The notes under the pieces were generated by a model that worked only from the letters and a program-made list of their open reading frames with translations, did not search any database and was not told the origin of the DNA. A stretch of DNA of 39,208 nt from an uncultured bacterium (GTDB taxonomy: Bacteria > Auribacterota > CAZIXI01). How positions within the stretch are numbered: position 1 is the stretch's first letter; every line of letters starts with the position of its first letter. A program made the position numbers and the translations under genes. Below are positions 17,957 to 34,895 of the stretch, piece after piece. The stretch spans positions 1-39,208 of the forward strand of contig CAZIXI010000003.1 in the NCBI GenBank assembly GCA_964543115.1. Reading direction: 5' to 3'.

Positions 17957-18021
17957 AATCCGTTTAATGAATATTTAAAAGACGATACCTTGTAAATTAC
18001 TTAGATTGCCGCATTAGCCAA

Positions 18022-18903
18022 TTACGCCCGCGGATGGGCCTTGTCGTAAACCTTTTTTAACCTCTCCGGCGTAACATGAGTATAGATCTGGGTTGTGGAT
18101 ATACTCTTATGACCAAGTAATTCCTGCACAGAACGCAGATCCGCGCCGGCACTAAGCAGATGAGTGGCAAAAGTGTGCCGCAGGGTATGGGGAGATATCC
18201 GTTCCTGCAGGGCAACCTGCTTCATATATTTTTCTACTATCCGCTGGATCCCTCTAGTCGAGAGCCGCTGACCAAATCTATTGGCAAAAACCACCTTACC
18301 CTTAACACGGGGCTGTTCCTGGGACCGTTGCTCGAGATACTTTCTGATGGCCATTACCGCCGGCCGCCCCAAGGGCACCAGGCGCTCTTTTTTTCCCTTA
18401 CCTTTAGCCTTCAGCGCCTCGGCAATAAAATCAATATCATCAATACCGGCTCCGGCTAATTCACTGACCCGCAAACCTCCGCTATAGAGCACCTCCAGTA
18501 TCGCCCGGTCCCGCAAACCCTGCAGTGTATCCCGGCCGGGAGCCTCCAACAATTTCACGACCTTAGCCTTATCCAGAAAAACCGGCAATTTCTTTTCTCT
18601 TTTCGGTGCTGAAATCCCGGCAATCATATTTGTATCTACATACCCCTCCCGCTGCATGTACTTGTAAAAGCTCTTTAAGGAGGATAACTTCCTCGCCCGG
18701 CTGGCCCGGGAAAGATTCTGCTGCTGTAACTTGGCCAGGTAGGTCCTTATCTGTGCTACGGTAACATCGCCCAAATTTGTAATATTACGTCTTTCTAAAA
18801 AATCGGTAAAATGAAGAATATCCCTTTTATAATTGCTTAGTGTATGCCGTGAGGCATTCTTCTCCACCGTTAAATAATCAAGAAAATTTTTTAATTCCTT
18901 CAT
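18022..18903 (-). CDS. xerC: Tyrosine recombinase XerC
   Basis: RDRAILEVLYSGGLRVSEL, GKGKKER, HTLRHTFATHLL..GADLRSVQELLGH, TTQIYTH, YDKAHPRA; downstream of dprA-topA as is usual for xerC. Confidence 0.88.
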   Translation of the reverse strand: MKELKNFLDYLTVEKNASRHTLSNYKRDILHFTDFLERRNITNLGDVTVAQIRTYLAKLQQQNLSRASRARKLSSLKSFYKYMQREGYVDTNMIAGISAPKREKKLPVFLDKAKVVKLLEAPGRDTLQGLRDRAILEVLYSGGLRVSELAGAGIDDIDFIAEALKAKGKGKKERLVPLGRPAVMAIRKYLEQRSQEQPRVKGKVVFANRFGQRLSTRGIQRIVEKYMKQVALQERISPHTLRHTFATHLLSAGADLRSVQELLGHKSISTTQIYTHVTPERLKKVYDKAHPRA

Positions 18904-18919
18904 GTTTTATTTTTTTGTT

Positions 18920-19071
18920 GCCCCAAGCACAGCGAGGGGGACAGGCTCCTACAACCAACGGGCCGGGCAGTCTATATCCATTCCAATAATAGCAGTCTAT
19001 ATACATTCATATAATAGCAGCCCCGCGAAGCGGGGCAGTCCCAGCTTTGCTGGGGCAGGCCCGGCCCCTAC
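18920..19071 (-). repeat. GTAG-type REP hairpin with four units stacked in its loop, plus a second degenerate GTAG element
   Basis: Arms GGGCCGGGC (18960-18968) and GCCCGGCCC (19059-19067), then CTAC (19068-19071); GCAG at 18967, 18992, 19017, 19035, 19055; second CTAC at 18949-18952 next to GGGGACAG. Confidence 0.8.
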
Positions 19072-22000
19072 TAATATTTCCCATTTACCCTGACAAACCA
19101 GCCCTTGGAATCCCATTTGTCTTCGTTGCGGAGGTCGTCGTCGTAGTCGGTAAAATTATAACCTACACCCAGACGGATATACCTGCCAATCTCGCGGTCC
19201 ACCTCCAGCAGCCAGCCATTTTTCTGATCTTCAATCTGCTTGTTGCGTAATGTCCGGTACTCCGCCGCCAAATCCCAGGCACGGGTAAGATGAAAATTCA
19301 CCCGCCCCAGATATAAATACGTGTCACTATGCGTCCAGCTGCGATACCCCACTTTTTCTTTCATGTCACGATAGGCAACCTTCCCCACCAATTGCAGCCA
19401 TTTCAGAACATCGAACACTCCCTCTATCGCGTATACATGCCTTCGCGATTCCGTTCTTTCTACAAAATCTATCTGACTATCAGGCGGCAGGTTAGTGAGA
19501 TAACTGTACTTACCCAAGATGTTCAACCGGTCCCAGTCGATCGGGCGCAAACTGAATCCGCTGCCAACTTCGTAAAATTCCGCTTCATTGCGCTTTGTGC
19601 TACGGTCCTCGGTCCAGCCCCAGTTACCTCTGCCGGTCACACTCAATCCTTCAGTTAACCGCCATAACAAATCATTTTCCGTTACCCACTGCCGCACATC
19701 GGTCGTACCCCGGTCATTACGCAGTTCCACCTTACTATAACCCTTAACGCCTCTGGTACCAAACCAGAACTCATCCGGGTTAAGGTAGGTTAGGGCCACA
19801 CTACCGGCATCGCGATTAATTACCTCGGGATCCCGCCGCCGTTCGAAGTTACTACGCTCATAGGTCAGGCCCAAAGCAAAGGTTTCGGATACTTTTTCTT
19901 CATAACCCAATACCGTTCCCCGCACCAGATTCTCCTGCCAACTGCTGTAATCCTCTTCCACATACACCCGACTATCCGCACTGAGTGAGGTTGATTGACC
20001 ATAGGTCGTGCGGGCATATTTACCCAGATGAATATGATTTCCCACTTCCAGATTGGCATAGACATCCGTACCTTCAGTCATTTTACTGGTCACTCCCAAC
20101 AAGGTACTATTACCCAGATTGCCTATGGTCTCCGCTACATTCAACCGCGTCTTTTCCCAGATAACCATATCCGCGCCCACCGTCCCTTGATTATTCGTTC
20201 GGCCCTGCAATGTTGCCTGTCCCCGGACATAGGGATGAAACCACTTAAACAGCTGATAACCCACCCGGGCCGCCACAAAATCATTATCCTTTAACGGTAA
20301 CATGCCAAAATACGTATAATCCGTCTGCGGATGCTTTACCGTCTGATGCTGATATTCCCCGCGCAGGTCCCATTTCCCCCGCCGGTAATCGGCGATCCCC
20401 GTTGTTACATGCACATCCCGGGCACCCAATTCAGTCAGCGGAGTGGATTGCTTCTTTATCCTGGAGGTGACATGATTAAAACCCAGGGCCAGATACTGGG
20501 TAAGGCGGCTGTACACCATCCCCACTATCTTTTCTGTACCCTGCTGGCTGATACTATTCGTAATGGAAAAATACGGATCATAATTGCTGTAGGAAAGATA
20601 AACATCGGTATTCTTAAACAGCTTGGTCCGGCCGTTAACACTGTACCCCTCACCGGTTTTACCGTTACTGAATGTCTCCTGCTGGTCACTGAAATTAAGG
20701 CCGCCATCATAACTGGTACTGCTGCCCAGCTGTGTTTCCTTACTGTGGCCGTAAAAGGCATTTATCGAGGTATCCTCATTAATCTTTAAGGTGGCATCTC
20801 CGCTATAAACCTCATAGTTCGGGCCGTCTTTCTGCTCCTGCACATACGCCCCGCCAAGGCGCACATGATGCCCCAACTGCTGGCTTACCCGGCCGCCCCA
20901 GGTATTATCGCTTAATCCCTCACTCAAATACTCGTAATCCACTATCAAATACACGCGTTCTCCCATCAGTAAATCATTACTAATTATAGTACTATTATAG
21001 GCCTGCTGAACACTATTCAGCGGCTTTCTTAATAAAATCCGGCCGCTGTCATAATCTACCTCATAATCCTTCTCTTCGGCCAGCGGAATACTGCTTAAGG
21101 TGGCCTTACTCACCCGGTCCCGCACCTCTATGCGCAGCTTTTCACTACCCTCGATCACATCCTGGTGCCGCAGGTAATAGAGACTGCCGCCGGTACCCAC
21201 AAACTCATCATGGGCGGCCTTCTGCCGGCTAGCCGCGCCAAAACCCTTTACCATCGTCCAGGGATCACCAAATTTTGTCTCTCCCACACTAACATAATTT
21301 ACTATCCCGCCGCTCAAGGTGCGTTCATAAATATTAAAGGGCATTTCCGTATTAAAACTGCCCCACTTGGCAAAACTCTCGTCCCATTCGATTAACACAA
21401 ACGCCACATCCTGCGTATCCACTCCCTCATAATTAACTGTGGAGGCATCACCATAAACCGGATAATATTTATCCGGATCAAGGTTAGTAAACAGGTCCTT
21501 GGTGCGATACCGGCCGCCAGGCAGACGTTCCGTATCTACACAGGCCTTAACCAGATACTTACCTAAGACCTTTCCTTTTAAATAAAACGCCAATCTCCCA
21601 TCTACCCGCACCCCGTCATCGTAACGGTCATCCTTATCCATCATCTTAATGTTGCCGCTGGTATTGAGATTACTTACGGTTCCTTCGCCTAACGCTACAA
21701 TAAAGAACTTATCTAATATATTCTTGACCCCCGAGGGCTGCTCGCCTTTGACCATTTCTTCGTCAATTGCTTTTTCCTGCGATACACCAAAGTTTACCTT
21801 TGCCAACAATCCCTGCGTAACCTTCACAAAATACGGATTTTCTGTTGTAAATGTAGCCCCCTCCGGCAAGGTATTCGGATCCACTTTTAAAAGATGATTT
21901 TCCGCTGGCACATCCGCTATATGGTACTTGCCATCTTCGTCAGTGGTTACACAAACACCATACTCGGTATATATCTTTACTCCCGCTATACCTTTTTCGT

Positions 22001-25000
22001 CGCTCGTCGCTCGTATCTCGTCGTTCGTATCTTGAATTCCATTATTATTGTAGTCCCAGAAAACTTTACCAATAATGGTTCCTCTGGTAAACAAGGGGTC
22101 TGCCGTAACTTCTATGCTGGCGCTGTCAATGTTACTGTTGCGGCTGAGGGTGGTACTGTTACGCGTGTGTGCCGCTGCCTTGTAACGGCCCGGGGGAATA
22201 GCGGTGCCCACCCGGAACTGGTAACTGATATTTACCGTGGTGCGTTTAGCTATGTTACCGATATTAAATACTGCCTGGCGGCCGCTAACAACCGGATCAG
22301 CTACTTTTGCGCTTCCCCGGTAGCTGCTGCCGCTGACATATTTAAACCCATTCACCACTTCATCTGCCAGTTCCACATTACCCACCGGCTCGTACCAGTG
22401 TTTATTCTCAATTTTTACATTGTAGGTAACTATCTCCCCATTCTGTACCCGTTTTTTATTAACGGTCTTAGTTACCACCAGCCAGCCGCCCGGGTCCATA
22501 GGGATATTAATGGTCAGCGGATCACTGGCCGCCGGGAAATTCTCACCATGATCACCGAGCACCACTCCACTCACCATTTGAGAGGGAAAACCATATCCGC
22601 TCTTGGCAACAGAGATATGATAATTCCCCGGCTCCACATTAAAGGTATAGGGATTACTGGTGGTGGTGGAAAGCGCCGCAGAAGAGTCTTTGCGGTAAAT
22701 GGCCACCGTGGGCCGGCTGATCAGCTCACCGGTTACCGAGTCATATACCCGGCCGGTAATCGGCGGGTCACCTACTACGGTTTCAAAACAACCAATATCG
22801 TAATCCGTTCCCTGTGGGCGGGCCGTGCCTTGAATATCATCAGTAACTCCTTCAACTGCTAAATTTTCTCCGGCATCCACACAGGGAGAACCGGGATTGG
22901 TAGGCCGAAAGTCTTCTGCGGGTTCATCTTTAAACTGCGGGTCAGCATCGGTGTTGGTTGCACTGCCGGCATCGCCCGAATCCCAGCCCCAGGTAACCAG
23001 ATCATCAACACCGGTTGACTGAGTAGCCACATCAAATGCTAGAGCATCGCCATTATCACTATATAATAAACAATGTTCAACACTGGGATTGGCAGTGGCA
23101 TCTAGGGTTACCAGCACAAAACCATTATCGTTATTAAAAAGGCAGTTCCGGATTGTCGGTGAAGAGTTGAGACCCATAACAACTTCGTTATCCTGATTGG
23201 AACCAGATGTATTATTGCTAAACGTACACTGATAGATGTTTGGCGAAGATGTAGTGAGCCAAACCGCCCCTCCGTCTCCCCCGGAGCTATTACCATAAAA
23301 AAGACAATTGATCAGATGCACGGTACTGTTCGTTTCACTAACCGCACCTCCAGTCTGGGTTGCCTGGTTATTATTAAACGTACATTTTGAAATAGTACCG
23401 GTACTGCCAGCTATTTCAACGGCGCCTGATACCCCATCAGTAGCAGAATTATTTGAAAATGTCGCACCCATTAGAGTAATCGTAGAAGCACTACTTTCTA
23501 CTGCCGCCATAGAAGGAGCGGTGTTTTGGCTAAACGTAAAGGTACCATTACTAAAACTGAGCGTACTGCCATCACTAACAGCCACGCCCCCGGCTTCTTG
23601 CGTGGCTGAATTACTACTAAAAGTGGTACTGGAATTAGTATAGGTAGTGGAATTGTATATATAAGTATCAGTCAATGTCGAAGACTCCGAAATTACGAAA
23701 GCACCGCCAATAACAGCGGAATTATTAGATAATGTACAATCAACAATCGCGATTGTGCTGGAATCATAGCCGTGCAAAAAACCGCCAGCAACTGTTGACT
23801 GGTTATTGGACATTATACAGCTGTCGAAACTCACCGTTGAATTGCCGACTTTAAATGCCCCGCCATCATCATCAATATTATAGCCATTCTGAAATCCCAG
23901 CTGGGAGAAAATTGCTGTATGTGTGGAATTTCCTATATCAAAAAGAACACTAGTATTTCCCCCATCAATAATCGTACTACTGGCCCCTTCACCGATAAAG
24001 CGCACCGTCGGGCCACCACTAACCATAATAGGGAAATTCTCCCCGGAGGCGGCATTAAAGGTGCCCATTAGATAAACATCAATATTGCCGCTTCTACTGG
24101 CCAACTGACTGACCGCGTAACCGATGGTGCCCCAGGCTTCCGCCCAGGTAGTCCCGTTATTGCTATCACTGCCGGTACCGGCCCATACATAGTAGGTATT
24201 GGGCGTTGCCCCGACAGAAATAGCAACTGTGGCCGTATCACTAAGGCCGTCATTATCCACCACCGTTAATGTAGCAGTATATGTTCCTTCGGTATTATAT
24301 GTATAAGAAGCGCTGGCCCCGGTACCGGTATTACTATCACCATAATCCCAACTATAGGAACTAATGGTTCCATCTGAATCAGTGCTTCCGGAACCGTCAA
24401 AAGTTACAGTTAACGGTGCCGGACCGCTGGTGGGACTGGCGGAAATAGAGGCCGTGGGCCCGCTAGGTGTTGGTGTTGGATCAGGCGGCGGTTCCGGCTG
24501 CGGCGGCGGGGCGGGCTGTTCCTCCTCCTCTGCCAATTCCACCTCTTCTAATACCGGACCTTCTCCTTCACCCACAATCTCTTCATCATGCACTTCACCA
24601 GTATCATTATTTGTATCGGGAATGGGCAAAATAATCGGATCTATGCCTTCAACAGGAGAAACACCTCCGTCACCTTCTTCAAGCGGAGAAATGTATTCTT
24701 CATCTTCCTCAACAACTACCACTTCTTCTTCCTCAATCGTTGATTCTTCCTCTTCCCCCGGCTCAGCTTCTTCTTCACCTGGTTCTGCCTCATCTTCTTC
24801 CCCCGGTTCCGCTTCATCTTCTTCCCCAGGCTCCGCTTCATCTTCCTCCCCTGGTTCGGCTTCGTCTTCCTCACCCGGCTCTGCTTCGTCCTCCTCGCCC
24901 GGTTCCGCCTCGTCTTCCTCACCCGGCTCTGCTTCGTCTTCCTCCCCCGGTTCCGCCTCTTCTTCCTCCCCCGGCTCTGCTTCGTCCTCCTCGCCCGGTT

Positions 25001-25640
25001 CCGCCTCTTCCTCCTCACCCGGCTCGCCTTCTTTTTCTTCCTCTTCTTCTCCCGGCGCCACCTCCTCTTCTTCCTCATCCACTGGCGGCAGATCCTCTAT
25101 TTCAATCCCTTCTTCTTCTAAAACTTCCTCATTTGTCTCTTCTTCGATCTTCTCTTCTGTTTCCTGTTCTTCCTTTTCCTTATCTTCCCTTACCTCTTCC
25201 GCCTCTTCCTCTAATTCCCGCTTTTCCTTAACAACTATCTTGGCAACCTTGCCCTTAAGGTACTCCTCTCCCCCGGTTACCGTCCGACCCACACTCAGCA
25301 CATCCCAGGCTGTCTGGTATTTGCGGCGATTATTCTTTATCAGCAATACCTTGGCCTGGGGCTGAAGCTGTTCCCAGATCTGGTAACGAAATTCATAAGG
25401 CAGGTAACAACTGATCCGCTTCTTCCTGGCTCGCACTTCCCCGGTATATTCATTTACCCGCTGCAGGAATATTCCCACTTCGATCTCCCCCCGGCGAACC
25501 TGCTCCCTCAATTCCTCAGGATAATCAAAACAGTAAACTTCCCCCTCCACAACTTTCACCAGGGTAGTTGTCTCGGCCGCACAAATAATTAACGGACAAA
25601 TGAAAAGTAAGACTAAGGATAGAAAAGTAGTTTTACGCAT
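19071..25640 (-). CDS. Giant secreted/outer-membrane protein: acidic repeat stalk, PKD, Pmp-like beta-helix, DUF11, SdrD-B-like and probable C-terminal beta-barrel
   Basis: Signal peptide; (EEDEAEPG)n; SASPTSGPAPLTVTFDGSGS.D.DG.I.SY.WDYGD (PKD); GGA[FV]/FxxN repeats; GSPCVDAG..DIGCFE; VTKTV...GEIVTY (DUF11); IGKVFWDYNNNG.QD; amphipathic C-terminal strands ending WFVRVNGKY. Confidence 0.75.
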   Translation of the reverse strand: MRKTTFLSLVLLFICPLIICAAETTTLVKVVEGEVYCFDYPEELREQVRRGEIEVGIFLQRVNEYTGEVRARKKRISCYLPYEFRYQIWEQLQPQAKVLLIKNNRRKYQTAWDVLSVGRTVTGGEEYLKGKVAKIVVKEKRELEEEAEEVREDKEKEEQETEEKIEEETNEEVLEEEGIEIEDLPPVDEEEEEVAPGEEEEEKEGEPGEEEEAEPGEEDEAEPGEEEEAEPGEEDEAEPGEEDEAEPGEEDEAEPGEEDEAEPGEEDEAEPGEEDEAEPGEEDEAEPGEEEAEPGEEEESTIEEEEVVVVEEDEEYISPLEEGDGGVSPVEGIDPIILPIPDTNNDTGEVHDEEIVGEGEGPVLEEVELAEEEEQPAPPPQPEPPPDPTPTPSGPTASISASPTSGPAPLTVTFDGSGSTDSDGTISSYSWDYGDSNTGTGASASYTYNTEGTYTATLTVVDNDGLSDTATVAISVGATPNTYYVWAGTGSDSNNGTTWAEAWGTIGYAVSQLASRSGNIDVYLMGTFNAASGENFPIMVSGGPTVRFIGEGASSTIIDGGNTSVLFDIGNSTHTAIFSQLGFQNGYNIDDDGGAFKVGNSTVSFDSCIMSNNQSTVAGGFLHGYDSSTIAIVDCTLSNNSAVIGGAFVISESSTLTDTYIYNSTTYTNSSTTFSSNSATQEAGGVAVSDGSTLSFSNGTFTFSQNTAPSMAAVESSASTITLMGATFSNNSATDGVSGAVEIAGSTGTISKCTFNNNQATQTGGAVSETNSTVHLINCLFYGNSSGGDGGAVWLTTSSPNIYQCTFSNNTSGSNQDNEVVMGLNSSPTIRNCLFNNDNGFVLVTLDATANPSVEHCLLYSDNGDALAFDVATQSTGVDDLVTWGWDSGDAGSATNTDADPQFKDEPAEDFRPTNPGSPCVDAGENLAVEGVTDDIQGTARPQGTDYDIGCFETVVGDPPITGRVYDSVTGELISRPTVAIYRKDSSAALSTTTSNPYTFNVEPGNYHISVAKSGYGFPSQMVSGVVLGDHGENFPAASDPLTINIPMDPGGWLVVTKTVNKKRVQNGEIVTYNVKIENKHWYEPVGNVELADEVVNGFKYVSGSSYRGSAKVADPVVSGRQAVFNIGNIAKRTTVNISYQFRVGTAIPPGRYKAAAHTRNSTTLSRNSNIDSASIEVTADPLFTRGTIIGKVFWDYNNNGIQDTNDEIRATSDEKGIAGVKIYTEYGVCVTTDEDGKYHIADVPAENHLLKVDPNTLPEGATFTTENPYFVKVTQGLLAKVNFGVSQEKAIDEEMVKGEQPSGVKNILDKFFIVALGEGTVSNLNTSGNIKMMDKDDRYDDGVRVDGRLAFYLKGKVLGKYLVKACVDTERLPGGRYRTKDLFTNLDPDKYYPVYGDASTVNYEGVDTQDVAFVLIEWDESFAKWGSFNTEMPFNIYERTLSGGIVNYVSVGETKFGDPWTMVKGFGAASRQKAAHDEFVGTGGSLYYLRHQDVIEGSEKLRIEVRDRVSKATLSSIPLAEEKDYEVDYDSGRILLRKPLNSVQQAYNSTIISNDLLMGERVYLIVDYEYLSEGLSDNTWGGRVSQQLGHHVRLGGAYVQEQKDGPNYEVYSGDATLKINEDTSINAFYGHSKETQLGSSTSYDGGLNFSDQQETFSNGKTGEGYSVNGRTKLFKNTDVYLSYSNYDPYFSITNSISQQGTEKIVGMVYSRLTQYLALGFNHVTSRIKKQSTPLTELGARDVHVTTGIADYRRGKWDLRGEYQHQTVKHPQTDYTYFGMLPLKDNDFVAARVGYQLFKWFHPYVRGQATLQGRTNNQGTVGADMVIWEKTRLNVAETIGNLGNSTLLGVTSKMTEGTDVYANLEVGNHIHLGKYARTTYGQSTSLSADSRVYVEEDYSSWQENLVRGTVLGYEEKVSETFALGLTYERSNFERRRDPEVINRDAGSVALTYLNPDEFWFGTRGVKGYSKVELRNDRGTTDVRQWVTENDLLWRLTEGLSVTGRGNWGWTEDRSTKRNEAEFYEVGSGFSLRPIDWDRLNILGKYSYLTNLPPDSQIDFVERTESRRHVYAIEGVFDVLKWLQLVGKVAYRDMKEKVGYRSWTHSDTYLYLGRVNFHLTRAWDLAAEYRTLRNKQIEDQKNGWLLEVDREIGRYIRLGVGYNFTDYDDDLRNEDKWDSKGWFVRVNGKY
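21997..22031. repeat. Five tandem heptamers within the giant gene
   Basis: TCGTCGC TCGTCGC TCGTATC TCGTCGT TCGTATC on the + strand. Confidence 0.75.
24756..25025 (-). repeat. 24-bp coding tandem repeat (EE[D/E]EAEPG x10 plus one 7-aa unit)
   Basis: First and last Pro codons are 261 bp apart = 10x24 + 21; synonymous codons vary between units. Confidence 0.92.
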
Positions 25641-29362: not shown

Positions 29363-30505
29363 CTAAGAAATAATCTCTTTAAGGACCTCTCGCACATCCG
29401 CTTCCGGTACTTTGTCAGTAAGCTTTACTTTGCCGATCTTCTCGGCCAAAACAAACCTTAGCTTGCCGGCAACCGCTTTCTTATCATGCCGAAGCATGGC
29501 CAAAACTTTATCTTCTAGCCTGGCGTCCCGCCCCCGACACGTCGGGGACAGCCTTAGAGGAATGGCTATAGACTGACCGGCTGTCTCTAAGTGTACCGGT
29601 AAACCCAATGCCTTAAGCAAATCAATCTGACTATCCCGCGAAGCGCCATTAAGATAGCCTAATCGGCAGGCCAATTTTGCCGCCGCCGCCATACCGATAG
29701 CAACCGCTTCTCCATGAGTCAGTTCCTGATACTCGGTTAATGTCTCTAAGGCATGGCCGATTGTATGGCCATAATTAAGAATTGCCCGCAAACCGCTAAG
29801 CTCACGCTCATCCTTACTAACAACCTCAGCCTTAATCCGGGCACAGGTGGTAATTATATCCAGCCACAAATCTTTTTCAAGCTTAAATAATTTTTCCTGC
29901 TGTTCCGCCAGCATATTGAACAGGCGCCGGTCCCTGATCACACCATACTTAACCACCTCCGCCAATCCAGTACGTATCTCTTTCTGCGAAAGAGTACTAA
30001 GTGTTTGGACGTCGGTATAGACAAACCTGGGCTGCCAGAAACTACCCACGAGATTTTTACCCTGAGAAAGATTTACCCCTGTCTTACCGCCAATACTGCT
30101 ATCCACCTGGGCCATCAATGTTGTGGGTAACTGCAGATAATCAATTCCCCGCATATAGGTAGCGGCAATAAATCCAGTCAGATCGCCCACCACTCCTCCA
30201 CCGCAGGCAATGAGAAAACTTTTCCTGTCTAATCCCCAATCCACTAATTGCTGATAAATCTTATCCGCGGTACTCAGGGATTTCGATTCTTCCCCCGGCC
30301 GCACCGCATAAACCGGCAGATCATAACCCGCCCGGGCCAGCTCGTCTTTTAACTTGTTTACCCACAAACCATTAACCGTCTCATCGGTAATAATCCCGCC
30401 GCTCTTGCCTAACGGCTTCAGCAATTCCGCCAGACCGGCAAAAATATCATATCCTATATATATAGGATAGCTGCGCTCAGCCAAGGAAACAGATATTTTT
30501 TTCAT
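29363..30505 (-). CDS. aroB: 3-dehydroquinate synthase, with an in-frame insertion near the C-terminus
   Basis: GEESKS, GGGVVGDL.GF.AATYMRG, PTTLMAQVDSSIGGKTGVN, LNYGHTIGHALE, HGEAVAIGM, DKK. Confidence 0.96.
   Translation of the reverse strand: MKKISVSLAERSYPIYIGYDIFAGLAELLKPLGKSGGIITDETVNGLWVNKLKDELARAGYDLPVYAVRPGEESKSLSTADKIYQQLVDWGLDRKSFLIACGGGVVGDLTGFIAATYMRGIDYLQLPTTLMAQVDSSIGGKTGVNLSQGKNLVGSFWQPRFVYTDVQTLSTLSQKEIRTGLAEVVKYGVIRDRRLFNMLAEQQEKLFKLEKDLWLDIITTCARIKAEVVSKDERELSGLRAILNYGHTIGHALETLTEYQELTHGEAVAIGMAAAAKLACRLGYLNGASRDSQIDLLKALGLPVHLETAGQSIAIPLRLSPTCRGRDARLEDKVLAMLRHDKKAVAGKLRFVLAEKIGKVKLTDKVPEADVREVLKEIIS
29521..29583. repeat. Hairpin plus ~24-bp unit inserted in frame in aroB
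   Basis: CCCCGAC-AC-GTCGGGG (29532-29547) followed by GGAATGGCTATAGACTGACCGGC, which matches the minus strand of the xerC-upstream element at 21/23. Confidence 0.75.
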
Positions 30506-30521
30506 TTATTATCCCCTATTC

Positions 30522-30566
30522 GGGAGGGCACCTGCCTGCCGGCAGGCAGGCAAGGCCCTCCCCTAC
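30522..30566 (-). repeat. GTAG-type REP hairpin with a 20-bp perfect palindrome in its loop
   Basis: Minus strand: GTAG GGGAGGGC CTTG [CCTGCCTGCCGGCAGGCAGG] T GCCCTCCC, starting immediately after the aroK TAG. Confidence 0.82.
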
Positions 30567-34812: not shown

Positions 34813-34895
34813 GATTGCGGATTGCGGACCCTCTGCGAGGGCTGCAAAAAGCCTGTTTTAGATTGCGGATTTGCAGCTATTCAAAATTCGCAATT
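34813..34895. repeat. GATTGCG heptamer array interrupted by a 13-bp hairpin; inverted arm overlaps the larC stop
   Basis: GATTGCG GATTGCG GA [CCCTC-TGC-GAGGG 34829-34841] CTGC...GATTGCG GATTTGC ... ATTCAAAATTCGCAATT. Confidence 0.7.

Follow-up and report, generated by a model that had tools for sequence, protein, structure and literature searches.

The stop codon of a giant surface-type protein gene in an uncultured marine bacterium runs into the tag of a repetitive extragenic palindrome (REP), the loop of which is occupied by four short repeat units with the tetranucleotide GCAG at every joint. The locus lies in a 39,208-nt stretch of DNA (contig CAZIXI010000003.1, positions 1 to 39,208), referred to here as the window, and the genome containing it is represented by an assembly of 349 contigs (3.38 Mb, 45.7% G+C, 86.8% complete). 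The units in the loop are members of a large dispersed repeat family with more than 100 copies genome-wide, in which an AT-rich box (A) is joined by GCAG to a GC-rich hairpin (H). The REP loop has probably been invaded twice by this lineage-specific, non-autonomous A–H mini insertion element. In what follows, C-numbers denote contigs of the window's own genome assembly, and the reversed genome served as the control for pattern searches.

Architecture of the filled REP loop

Read on the + strand, with positions given for the whole window, the locus begins with the left arm of the REP (GGGCCGGGC, 18960..18968), the last two bases of which overlap the first GCAG (18967..18970). This is the tetranucleotide of the host loop, to be viewed either as the target or as the left copy of a duplication. 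It is followed by A1, the outer or alpha A box (TCTATATCCATTCCAATAATA, 21 nt, 18971..18991), which fits the 21-nt A profile; by the second GCAG (18992..18995), the junction housing the inner pair; by A2, the inner or beta A box (TCTATATACATTCATATAATA, 21 nt, 18996..19016); by the third GCAG (19017..19020), internal to the inner pair; and by H1, the inner or beta hairpin (CCCCGCGAAGCGGG, 14 nt, 19021..19034). The fourth GCAG (19035..19038) then leads to H2, the outer or alpha hairpin (TCCCAGCTTTGCTGGG, 16 nt, 19039..19054), and the fifth (19055..19058), the right copy of the flanking tetranucleotide, leads to the right arm of the REP (GCCCGGCCC, 19059..19067). The GTAG tag of the REP is on the minus strand (19068..19071, where the + strand reads CTAC), and its first G, base 19071, is also the last base of the TAG stop codon of the giant gene (19071..25640, minus strand). 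The loop insert is 88 nt long (18971-19058) and its unit periods are 25, 25, 18 and 20. A preliminary description, made from the letters of the window alone, had set out this layout, and it matches base for base, including the shared G of tag and stop codon. The two GC hairpins that it reported, H1 and H2, are perfect, and its two related AT-rich 25-mers correspond to A1 and A2 (21 nt plus GCAG), which differ at 3 of 21 positions.

Each unit, when searched for separately, proved to be dispersed and multi-copy in the genome, with four exact copies of A1, two of A2, 13 of H1 and six of H2. All six exact copies of H2 lie inside REP loops (C3, C4, C18 twice, C98 and C274), and H1 is the commonest inner hairpin among nested arrays. 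Since all units are multi-copy, their order might be a misassembly of repeats in a metagenome bin built from short reads; contigs elsewhere in the assembly end or have N gaps within arrays (C41, C77, C81, C145, C159 and C79), and no public contig spans the locus. Such an artefact is nevertheless extremely improbable, because contig pieces from public runs match the locus at 18965-19015 (1 difference) and at 18995-19042 and 19013-19140 (0 differences), and because the plan A-A-H-H was assembled independently at at least eight other loci, two of them in REP loops. Seven public runs carry parts of the window, and the four that were compared, as Logan contigs, have a depth of about 3x. Joints that skip 43 nt (18990->19034 and 18991->19035, in two runs) would match loss of the inner pair, although their sides are only 27-32 letters long and other loci with A and H2 could be their source. 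One joint steps back 33 nt and has a hairpin of the type seen on C77.

Empty and filled copies of the outer REP

The outer hairpin, placed at the giant gene's stop codon, belongs to the GTAG-tagged REPs. The sequences GTAGGGGCCGG and GTAGGGGAGGG are present in 19 and 18 copies in the genome, and empty REP copies have 8-9-bp stems and 4-6-nt loops. Of the three main stem types, type I has the stem GGGCCGGG and, on the GTAG strand, the empty loop CCTG; type II has the stem GGGAGGGC and the loop CTTGT or CTTGC; and type III has the stem GGGACGAC and the loop CTCCGT. Empty REPs read GGGCCGG-GCAG-GCCCGGCCC, and the left arm of the window's REP recurs in empty REPs on C84, C6, C11, C14, C39, C217 and C307.

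Removal of the 88 bp from the window's loop gives a perfect REP, and the empty form predicted in this way, GGGCCGGGCAGGCCCGGCCCCTAC, is found on C84, together with about nine further empty copies of this stem type elsewhere. The copy on C84 terminates the closest paralogue of the giant-gene end (78% identical) and is adjoined by a second, inverted REP copy. Paralogues of the last stretch of the giant gene, up to about 1.1 kb (window 19071-20200), number six in all (C84, C270, C147, C244, C242 and C23) and have 67-78% DNA identity. On C84 and C242 a gene-end segment of about 90 nt is duplicated.

A census of GTAG-tagged hairpins found copies with 0, 2 or 4 units. For type I there are about ten empty copies, two-unit copies on C98, C273 and C5, and four-unit copies in the window and on C39. 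Type II is represented by about 12 empty copies, by two-unit copies on C18 (twice) and C105, and by a four-unit copy on C274; type III by three to four empty copies and one two-unit copy on C4. The intermediate forms predicted in the preliminary description are therefore present as two-unit loops, but the series runs in steps of two, not through every number from one to three. Read from the flanks, nine of ten REP-borne copies run from A to H antisense to the GTAG strand.

A further REP in the window, of type II, lies just upstream of aroB (30522-30566, minus strand; GTAGGGGAGGGC...GCCCTCCC). Its loop insert is a palindrome, CTGCCTGCCGGCAGGCAG, made of CTGC/GCAG repeats, with similar copies on C331 and C46. 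This insert could be a footprint of A–H traffic or another kind of mini-insert.

The A–H repeat family

The A box is 19-22 nt long, with the consensus TCTATAnCCATTCCwATAATr, and H has a stem of 5-9 bp and mostly a GAA loop; one A–H insertion adds 42-50 nt. A 14-nt A core has 30 exact copies (0 in the control) and 110 with at most one mismatch (4 in the control). The strict pattern xCAG+A+GCAG+(T)CC gives 126 matches, against 0 in the control. Among these the 5' tetranucleotide is GCAG in 96, ACAG in 20, CCAG in 7 and TCAG in 3, whilst the A box measures 21 nt in 83, 20 nt in 26, 19 nt in 13 and 22 nt in 4. Of 122 copies, 101 have A+GCAG followed by a perfect stem of 5 bp or more, as against 1 of 122 when shuffled. 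These stems comprise 20 arm types; the loops of the 122 copies are mostly GAA (50), GGA (12) and AAA (11), and the tag of H is GTAG instead of GCAG in three copies.

With a stricter parser, 100 arrays were delineated, containing 128 A and 128 H units. Simple AH pairs account for 69 arrays, followed by AAHH (8), AHH (7), AHAH (6), AHA (3) and AAH (3), with rare occurrences of AHAHAH (2), AHAHA (1) and AHAAHH (1). The count from a looser parser was 113. In tandem (AH)n arrays the neighbouring units are identical, and such arrays are often found at contig ends or N gaps, on the six contigs named above; the array counts are lower bounds as a result. A second variant of the A box, TCTATAATATTCC..., is present and was counted only in part. 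The ends of A–H, TCTATA... and ...GGG, are not complementary, so that the element is without terminal inverted repeats. Among the near-perfect A cores no long element starting with an A box was found that might serve as an autonomous master copy.

Nested small repeats are unusually abundant in this genome. A–H pairs interrupt 8-mer tandem repeats such as GACAGAGT (C259, C110, C219, C63 and C19), GGGTCAA-type heptamers (C81, C214 and C11) and CGCAGAG repeats with an inverted partner (C79, C235, C10, C105 and C89). On C8 (~12650), C20 (~21840), C181 and C247 a composite of about 170 bp, with terminal inverted repeats TTCTGCAAAATAG...CTATTTTGCAGAA and inner CCGCGG palindromes, encloses a pair of A variant and H. 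This five-copy context was considered as an insertion sequence and rejected; it is instead a composite resembling a miniature inverted-repeat transposable element (MITE).

The unit of insertion

The inserting unit is the A–H pair, and not a single A or H. Paralogous sites on C31 and C114 are empty and read ...TTAACGCAG|AG... (ACGCAG|AG), with one GCAG, whilst those on C10, C105 and C89 are filled and read ...TTAACGCAG[A GCAG H GCAG]AG...; between C10 and C31 or C114 the flanks have 79-93% identity.

Pairs within coding sequences give the same picture. The YjbQ-family protein (yjbQ, C110) has a clean 15-residue gap relative to 1xbf, equal to 45 nt or 4+21+4+16, and 5-formyltetrahydrofolate cyclo-ligase (C4) has a clean 14-residue gap relative to 1sou, equal to 42 nt or 4+20+4+14. 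In the window itself, aroB (29363-30505, minus strand), encoding 3-dehydroquinate synthase (DHQ_synthase 7e-47, DHQS_C 5e-44), contains a pair at 29528..29576 (minus strand) composed of TCAG, A (20 nt), GCTG, H (17 nt) and GCGG, the delimiters being degenerate. At this site, alignment with the two solved 3-dehydroquinate synthases that match best has 18-19 gap positions, and the in-frame insert adds some 15-18 residues to the C-terminal domain, close to its end. Pfam matches span arrays in a GT9 heptosyltransferase, a metallophosphoesterase, MnmE and a pseudouridine synthase, and the array of a B12-radical-SAM protein separates its two domains. Gene-borne inserts use every one of the three forward frames as well as the reverse strand; the A–H repeat is thus a feature of the DNA and not a peptide repeat. 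Arrays are also in frame in two giant open reading frames (ORFs), C44:1578-18521 (5648 aa) and C145:393-8744 (2784 aa, with an N gap inside the array).

Outside the parsed arrays 30 near-perfect A cores remained. Two are chance matches and 28 are followed by GCAG (GTAG in three); in nearly all of the 28 a hairpin-like sequence comes next, two run into a contig end or N gap, and one (C11:22485) has GCAG and then a REP rather than H. Thus, apart from C11:22485, cut arrays and chance matches, no A box without a following H was found among the parsed arrays and the leftover cores.

These observations bear on the interpretation offered in the preliminary description, in which four single units inserted independently at one GCAG, each regenerating GCAG, to leave a chronological stack. 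The presence of GCAG at all five joints is as such a stack would predict, three-unit arrays do occur (AHH in 7 and AAH in 3 of 100), and hairpins preceded by RCAG but lacking an A box are also found. It is decidedly unlikely, however, given that no A box stands without a hairpin-like H, that REP copies progress from 0 to 2 to 4 units and that the gaps in yjbQ and the cyclo-ligase each amount to one A–H pair. Furthermore, the AHH arrays examined match nested arrays minus one A, being composed of alpha-A, beta-H and alpha-H or of beta-A, beta-H and alpha-H; slippage between GCAGs would yield such a loss. Finally, the subtypes of A and H depend on position within the array, as described below.

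Nesting of pairs within pairs

Beta A boxes are those of the TTTATA... or TCTATATACATTCATATAAT... type. In 14 arrays starting A-A-H, the inner (second) A is of beta type in 12 and the outer (first) A in none, and the inner H starts with C in all 14, compared with one of ten outer H. Among 58 simple A–H pairs a beta A is present in 8 and a C-start H in 19. An A of the TCTATATACATTCATATAAT type occupies the inner position on C4:32092 and C150, and arrays on C45, C5, C87, C30 and C10 have one at their 5' end. Since the subtypes depend on position, they point to nesting and not to a chronological stack. In an A-A-H-H array the central GCAG of the outer pair most likely houses a distinct inner pair, the array being the product of two events and not four. 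The notion that the array is an ordered record of successive insertions would hold in so far as insertion proceeded in steps, but the steps appear to be two nested pairs and not four stacked units.

Alternatively, A-A-H-H could be one composite element of about 90 nt that inserted in a single event, with two-unit forms as its deletion derivatives. AAHH occurs at 8-14 loci with the same internal order, and the GCAG direct repeats would permit slippage deletions. This explanation is unlikely, since simple pairs are about seven times commoner (69 vs 8-9 of 100) and outer hairpins vary widely, whereas inner pairs fall into few types with identical copies at separate loci. Moreover, the inner pair in the window is unlike those of the other two REP-borne four-unit arrays (C39 and C274), whilst its outer hairpin H2 is common to the two-unit REP forms on C98, C18 and C4.

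Flanking sequences and target

Of 102 copies, 53 have GCAG directly after H and 63 have a 4-mer that matches it with at most one mismatch, compared with 6 of 101 at a control offset. The flanks found in REP loops are GCAG...GCAG or GCAA for type I, ACAG...ACAA for type II and ACGG...ACGG for type III, so that the flanking triplets (GCA/GCA, ACA/ACA and ACG/ACG) copy the host loop. The triplets are equal in 8 of 10 REP-borne copies, read from the flanks and not independent of one another. When both sides of an array have RC, the base that opens the 5' flank is associated with the one that opens the 3' flank ([[23,6],[2,8]], Fisher p=0.0015, a value that overstates independence).

This pattern fits a target duplication of 3-4 bp, with the G that precedes TCTATA as the element's first base. 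The pattern is also compatible with insertion next to an RCAG that was already there. The proposal in the preliminary description that insertion regenerates GCAG is borne out to the extent that GCAG is present on both sides of the insert and once in the empty site, but the other REP types, with ACAG/ACAA and ACGG/ACGG, show that GCAG as such is not what is restored there.

Proposed history and possible enzymes

The history of the locus would begin with an empty REP at the stop codon of the giant gene. In a first event the outer pair A1...H2 would have entered the loop GCAG, giving a form that is extant in other REP copies. A second event would have brought the inner pair A2-GCAG-H1 into the central GCAG of the outer pair, with the outcome A1-A2-H1-H2 and GCAG at every joint. 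Insertion appears to prefer RCAG beside or inside a hairpin and to leave a 3-4-bp duplicate of the target.

The element may be driven in trans by a HUH/Y1 enzyme resembling the REP-associated tyrosine transposases (RAYTs), which would cut and join single-stranded DNA. This class is favoured over others because a hairpin tagged by GCAG or GTAG is built like a REP, but the attribution is tentative. According to the excerpted text of PMC8266576, single-stranded REPs are bound by RAYT enzymes via tag and hairpin, with cleavage at CT or CA beside the REPs and joining of strands. In some families the GTAG tag degenerates to GYAG, and REPs are also found inside ORFs, as stated in excerpts of PMC3733652.

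Two RAYT-like Y1_Tnp genes are present in the genome. One (C161:5665-6636, minus strand) encodes 323 aa with a long C-terminal extension, scores 82.3 bits on NF047646 (cut-off 80) and is flanked by a unique 30-nt inverted repeat. The other (C140:4218-4967, minus strand) encodes 249 aa, falls below the NF047646 cut-off and is flanked on both sides by GTAGGAGGTCAGACCTCCTAC REPs (of the GTAGGAGGTC... type), the 21-nt core of which, AGGAGGTCAGACCTCCTACAT, has 12 genome copies. Inspection of the flanks of RAYT genes, suggested in the preliminary description, brought no connection to light: neither gene has A–H or the window's type of REP beside it. No RAYT gene flanked by the window-type REP (a REPtron) was found in the 86.8%-complete assembly, from which a third such gene may be missing, and the same assembly has no match to the reverse transcriptase family RVT_1.

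Several points weigh against a double invasion by a mobile element of this kind. The array in the window is a path of a short-read assembly through repeats, every unit of which is multi-copy genome-wide. No insertion polymorphism was seen in the material compared, which included neither a close relative nor a read or contig across the locus. The family is mostly old, because 95 of 112 A–H pairs are distinct in sequence, and any activity may lie in the past. The REP-borne copies may share few ancestral events, and about one third of all copies have no recognisable RCAG after the last hairpin. As to the enzyme, the flanks of the two RAYT-like genes provide no link to A–H. RAYT-family matches are found in 62 of 79 genomes of the phylum and the A–H family in this one only, so a RAYT-like gene does not predict the family. 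Finally, HUH/Y1 transposition classically proceeds without target duplication, whereas the flanks here look duplicated.

Function or selfish DNA

Conceivably the array is not mobile at all but a functional structured RNA or protein-binding array under selection, with a regulatory, terminating or mRNA-stabilising role. Consistent with this, the + strand folds at -53.2 kcal/mol with a z of -3.41 (1 of 200 shuffles as good), hairpin stems stay paired across different sequences, the A box is strongly conserved and the REP is at the 3' end of a gene. The strand in the sense of the mRNA, by contrast, folds no better than its shuffles (z -1.41), and an Rfam covariance scan of 18000-20000 on both strands at E up to 10 gave 0 matches, so that the covariance-supported non-coding RNA or riboswitch contemplated as a counter-explanation in the preliminary description was not found in that interval. 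Copies are present within coding sequences in every frame and in both orientations to neighbouring genes: among the 113 arrays of the looser parser, 27 are same/same, 25 opposite/opposite, 19 divergent and 11 convergent, with no bias, the remainder being inside crude ORFs (21) or at contig ends (10). The family was also not found in the 78 other genomes of the phylum that were searched. A selected function is thus very improbable. The A–H repeat probably has no function for its host and is selfish DNA.

Distribution beyond this genome

As far as searched, the A–H family is private to this genome or lineage. With at most one mismatch, CAGTYTATANCCATTCC has 66 forward and 64 reverse matches in this genome, as against 0/0 in the control. 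In the 78 other phylum genomes, five have a single one-mismatch match and 73 have none. The exact IUPAC pattern of the A box has 9 isolated matches in a collection of one genome per species (185,579 species), 12 isolated matches in metagenome contigs and 1 in viral contigs. The context check covered the 21 genome and metagenome matches; none of the 21 has the CAG prefix or a following hairpin, and all are coding-like and due to chance. The 40 nearest genomes all belong merely to the same phylum and match the window at its recombinase gene alone. A full-text literature search returned no paper containing the 14-nt A core.

Relation to known systems

Overall, A–H is a variant of the very short repeats known from bacteria, such as REPs and bacterial interspersed mosaic elements (BIMEs), Rickettsia palindromic elements (RPEs) and small dispersed repeats (SDRs). 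It stands out for being small, built in two parts, nested in copies of itself and present in frame in essential genes.

The closest parallels are with REP/BIME and RAYT. The outer hairpin is itself a GTAG-tagged palindrome at a gene 3' end, with a doublet nearby in its C84 counterpart. Each H is likewise a tetranucleotide (GCAG, sometimes GTAG) plus a perfect GC hairpin in which pairing is kept while sequence varies. BIMEs join palindromes with other fixed motifs, and RAYT-like genes are present here. Unlike A–H, REPs are not described, in the excerpted literature, with a conserved 21-nt AT-rich partner box, with nesting at junctions or with duplicated flanks, and in this genome no cognate RAYT flanked by A–H or GCAG hairpins was found.

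Elements of the IS200/IS605 type and palindrome-associated mini-elements, mobilised as single strands by Y1 HUH enzymes, similarly are without terminal inverted repeats, have a hairpin beside a tetranucleotide and insert next to a specific tetranucleotide; in the excerpts of PMC8266576 the guide tetranucleotides sit 5' of the hairpins. They differ in having hairpins at both ends and no target duplication, whereas A–H has one hairpin and duplicated-looking flanks. Like MITEs and BOX elements, A–H is non-autonomous, short and multi-copy, although it is without the terminal inverted repeats of MITEs and is 2-6 times shorter than typical members of that group. BOX elements are modular, with repeated middle boxes.

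The SDRs of Nostoc, which Elhai and colleagues are said to have described in 2008, are reportedly 21-27 nt long, in some cases hairpins. They are said to occur inside other repeats and tandem heptamers and to have been argued to be mobile. In a similar manner A–H interrupts 8-mer tandem repeats, REPs and the 170-bp MITE-like element. To our knowledge the Nostoc SDR sequences are unrelated to A–H, and we know of no bipartite A+H plan or GCAG joints there. Finally, RPEs and REPs in ORFs are also small in-frame repeats in unrelated housekeeping genes, according to the excerpted text of PMC10969869 and PMC3733652. RPEs measure about 100-150 bp and each carries a conserved peptide, in contrast to A–H, which is 42-50 nt long, is read in all frames and is mostly intergenic.

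It is possible, albeit doubtful, that A–H represents a new class of insertion element, one that is ultra-small (~45 nt), site-specific and devoid of terminal inverted repeats. Such an element would target RCAG where it lies in a DNA hairpin's loop or at its foot, the junctions of earlier copies of the element included, leave a 3-4-bp duplication, build 'Russian-doll' arrays that record insertion history and seed insertions of 14-18 residues in essential proteins. It would be moved by a target-duplicating RAYT-like enzyme that acts on GCAG-tagged hairpins or by another, unrecognised one.

How very short bacterial repeats such as REPs, SDRs and RPEs spread is still largely unsolved, and the genome with A–H is an unusually legible case. 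Sites before and after insertion are available within it, as empty, singly and doubly filled REP loops, as empty paralogous sites and as in-frame insertions in proteins with solved homologues, and the rule of nesting is clear. A–H therefore offers precise substrates (GCAG plus hairpin, the A box and the RCAG target) for biochemistry of the RAYT type. Elements of this kind can add short peptide segments to essential enzymes, and the arrays explain contig breaks in the bin as well as odd inserts in aroB, mnmE and other genes.

Neighbouring genes and minor observations

The giant gene that ends at the REP encodes a surface-type protein of 2189 aa with matches to PKD, DUF11 and PMP-repeat families. 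Downstream of the REP lies the gene for a Xer-like tyrosine recombinase (18022..18903, minus strand; Pfam Phage_integrase 1e-47, Phage_int_SAM_1 1.5e-23), which is context only for A–H.

Three other identities for the array were considered. A CRISPR array was rejected, as there are no unique spacers, every unit is multi-copy elsewhere and the periods are 18-25 nt. An integron attC was dropped on sequence, core sites of the attC type being absent, and a promoter was dropped because a TATAAT-like end of the A box is seen in some copies only. Elsewhere in the window (~34815-34875, minus strand), GCAG is followed by the hairpin CCCTCGCAGAGGG, with AATCCGC-type short tandem repeats flanking; similar copies are present on C41, C23 and C47.

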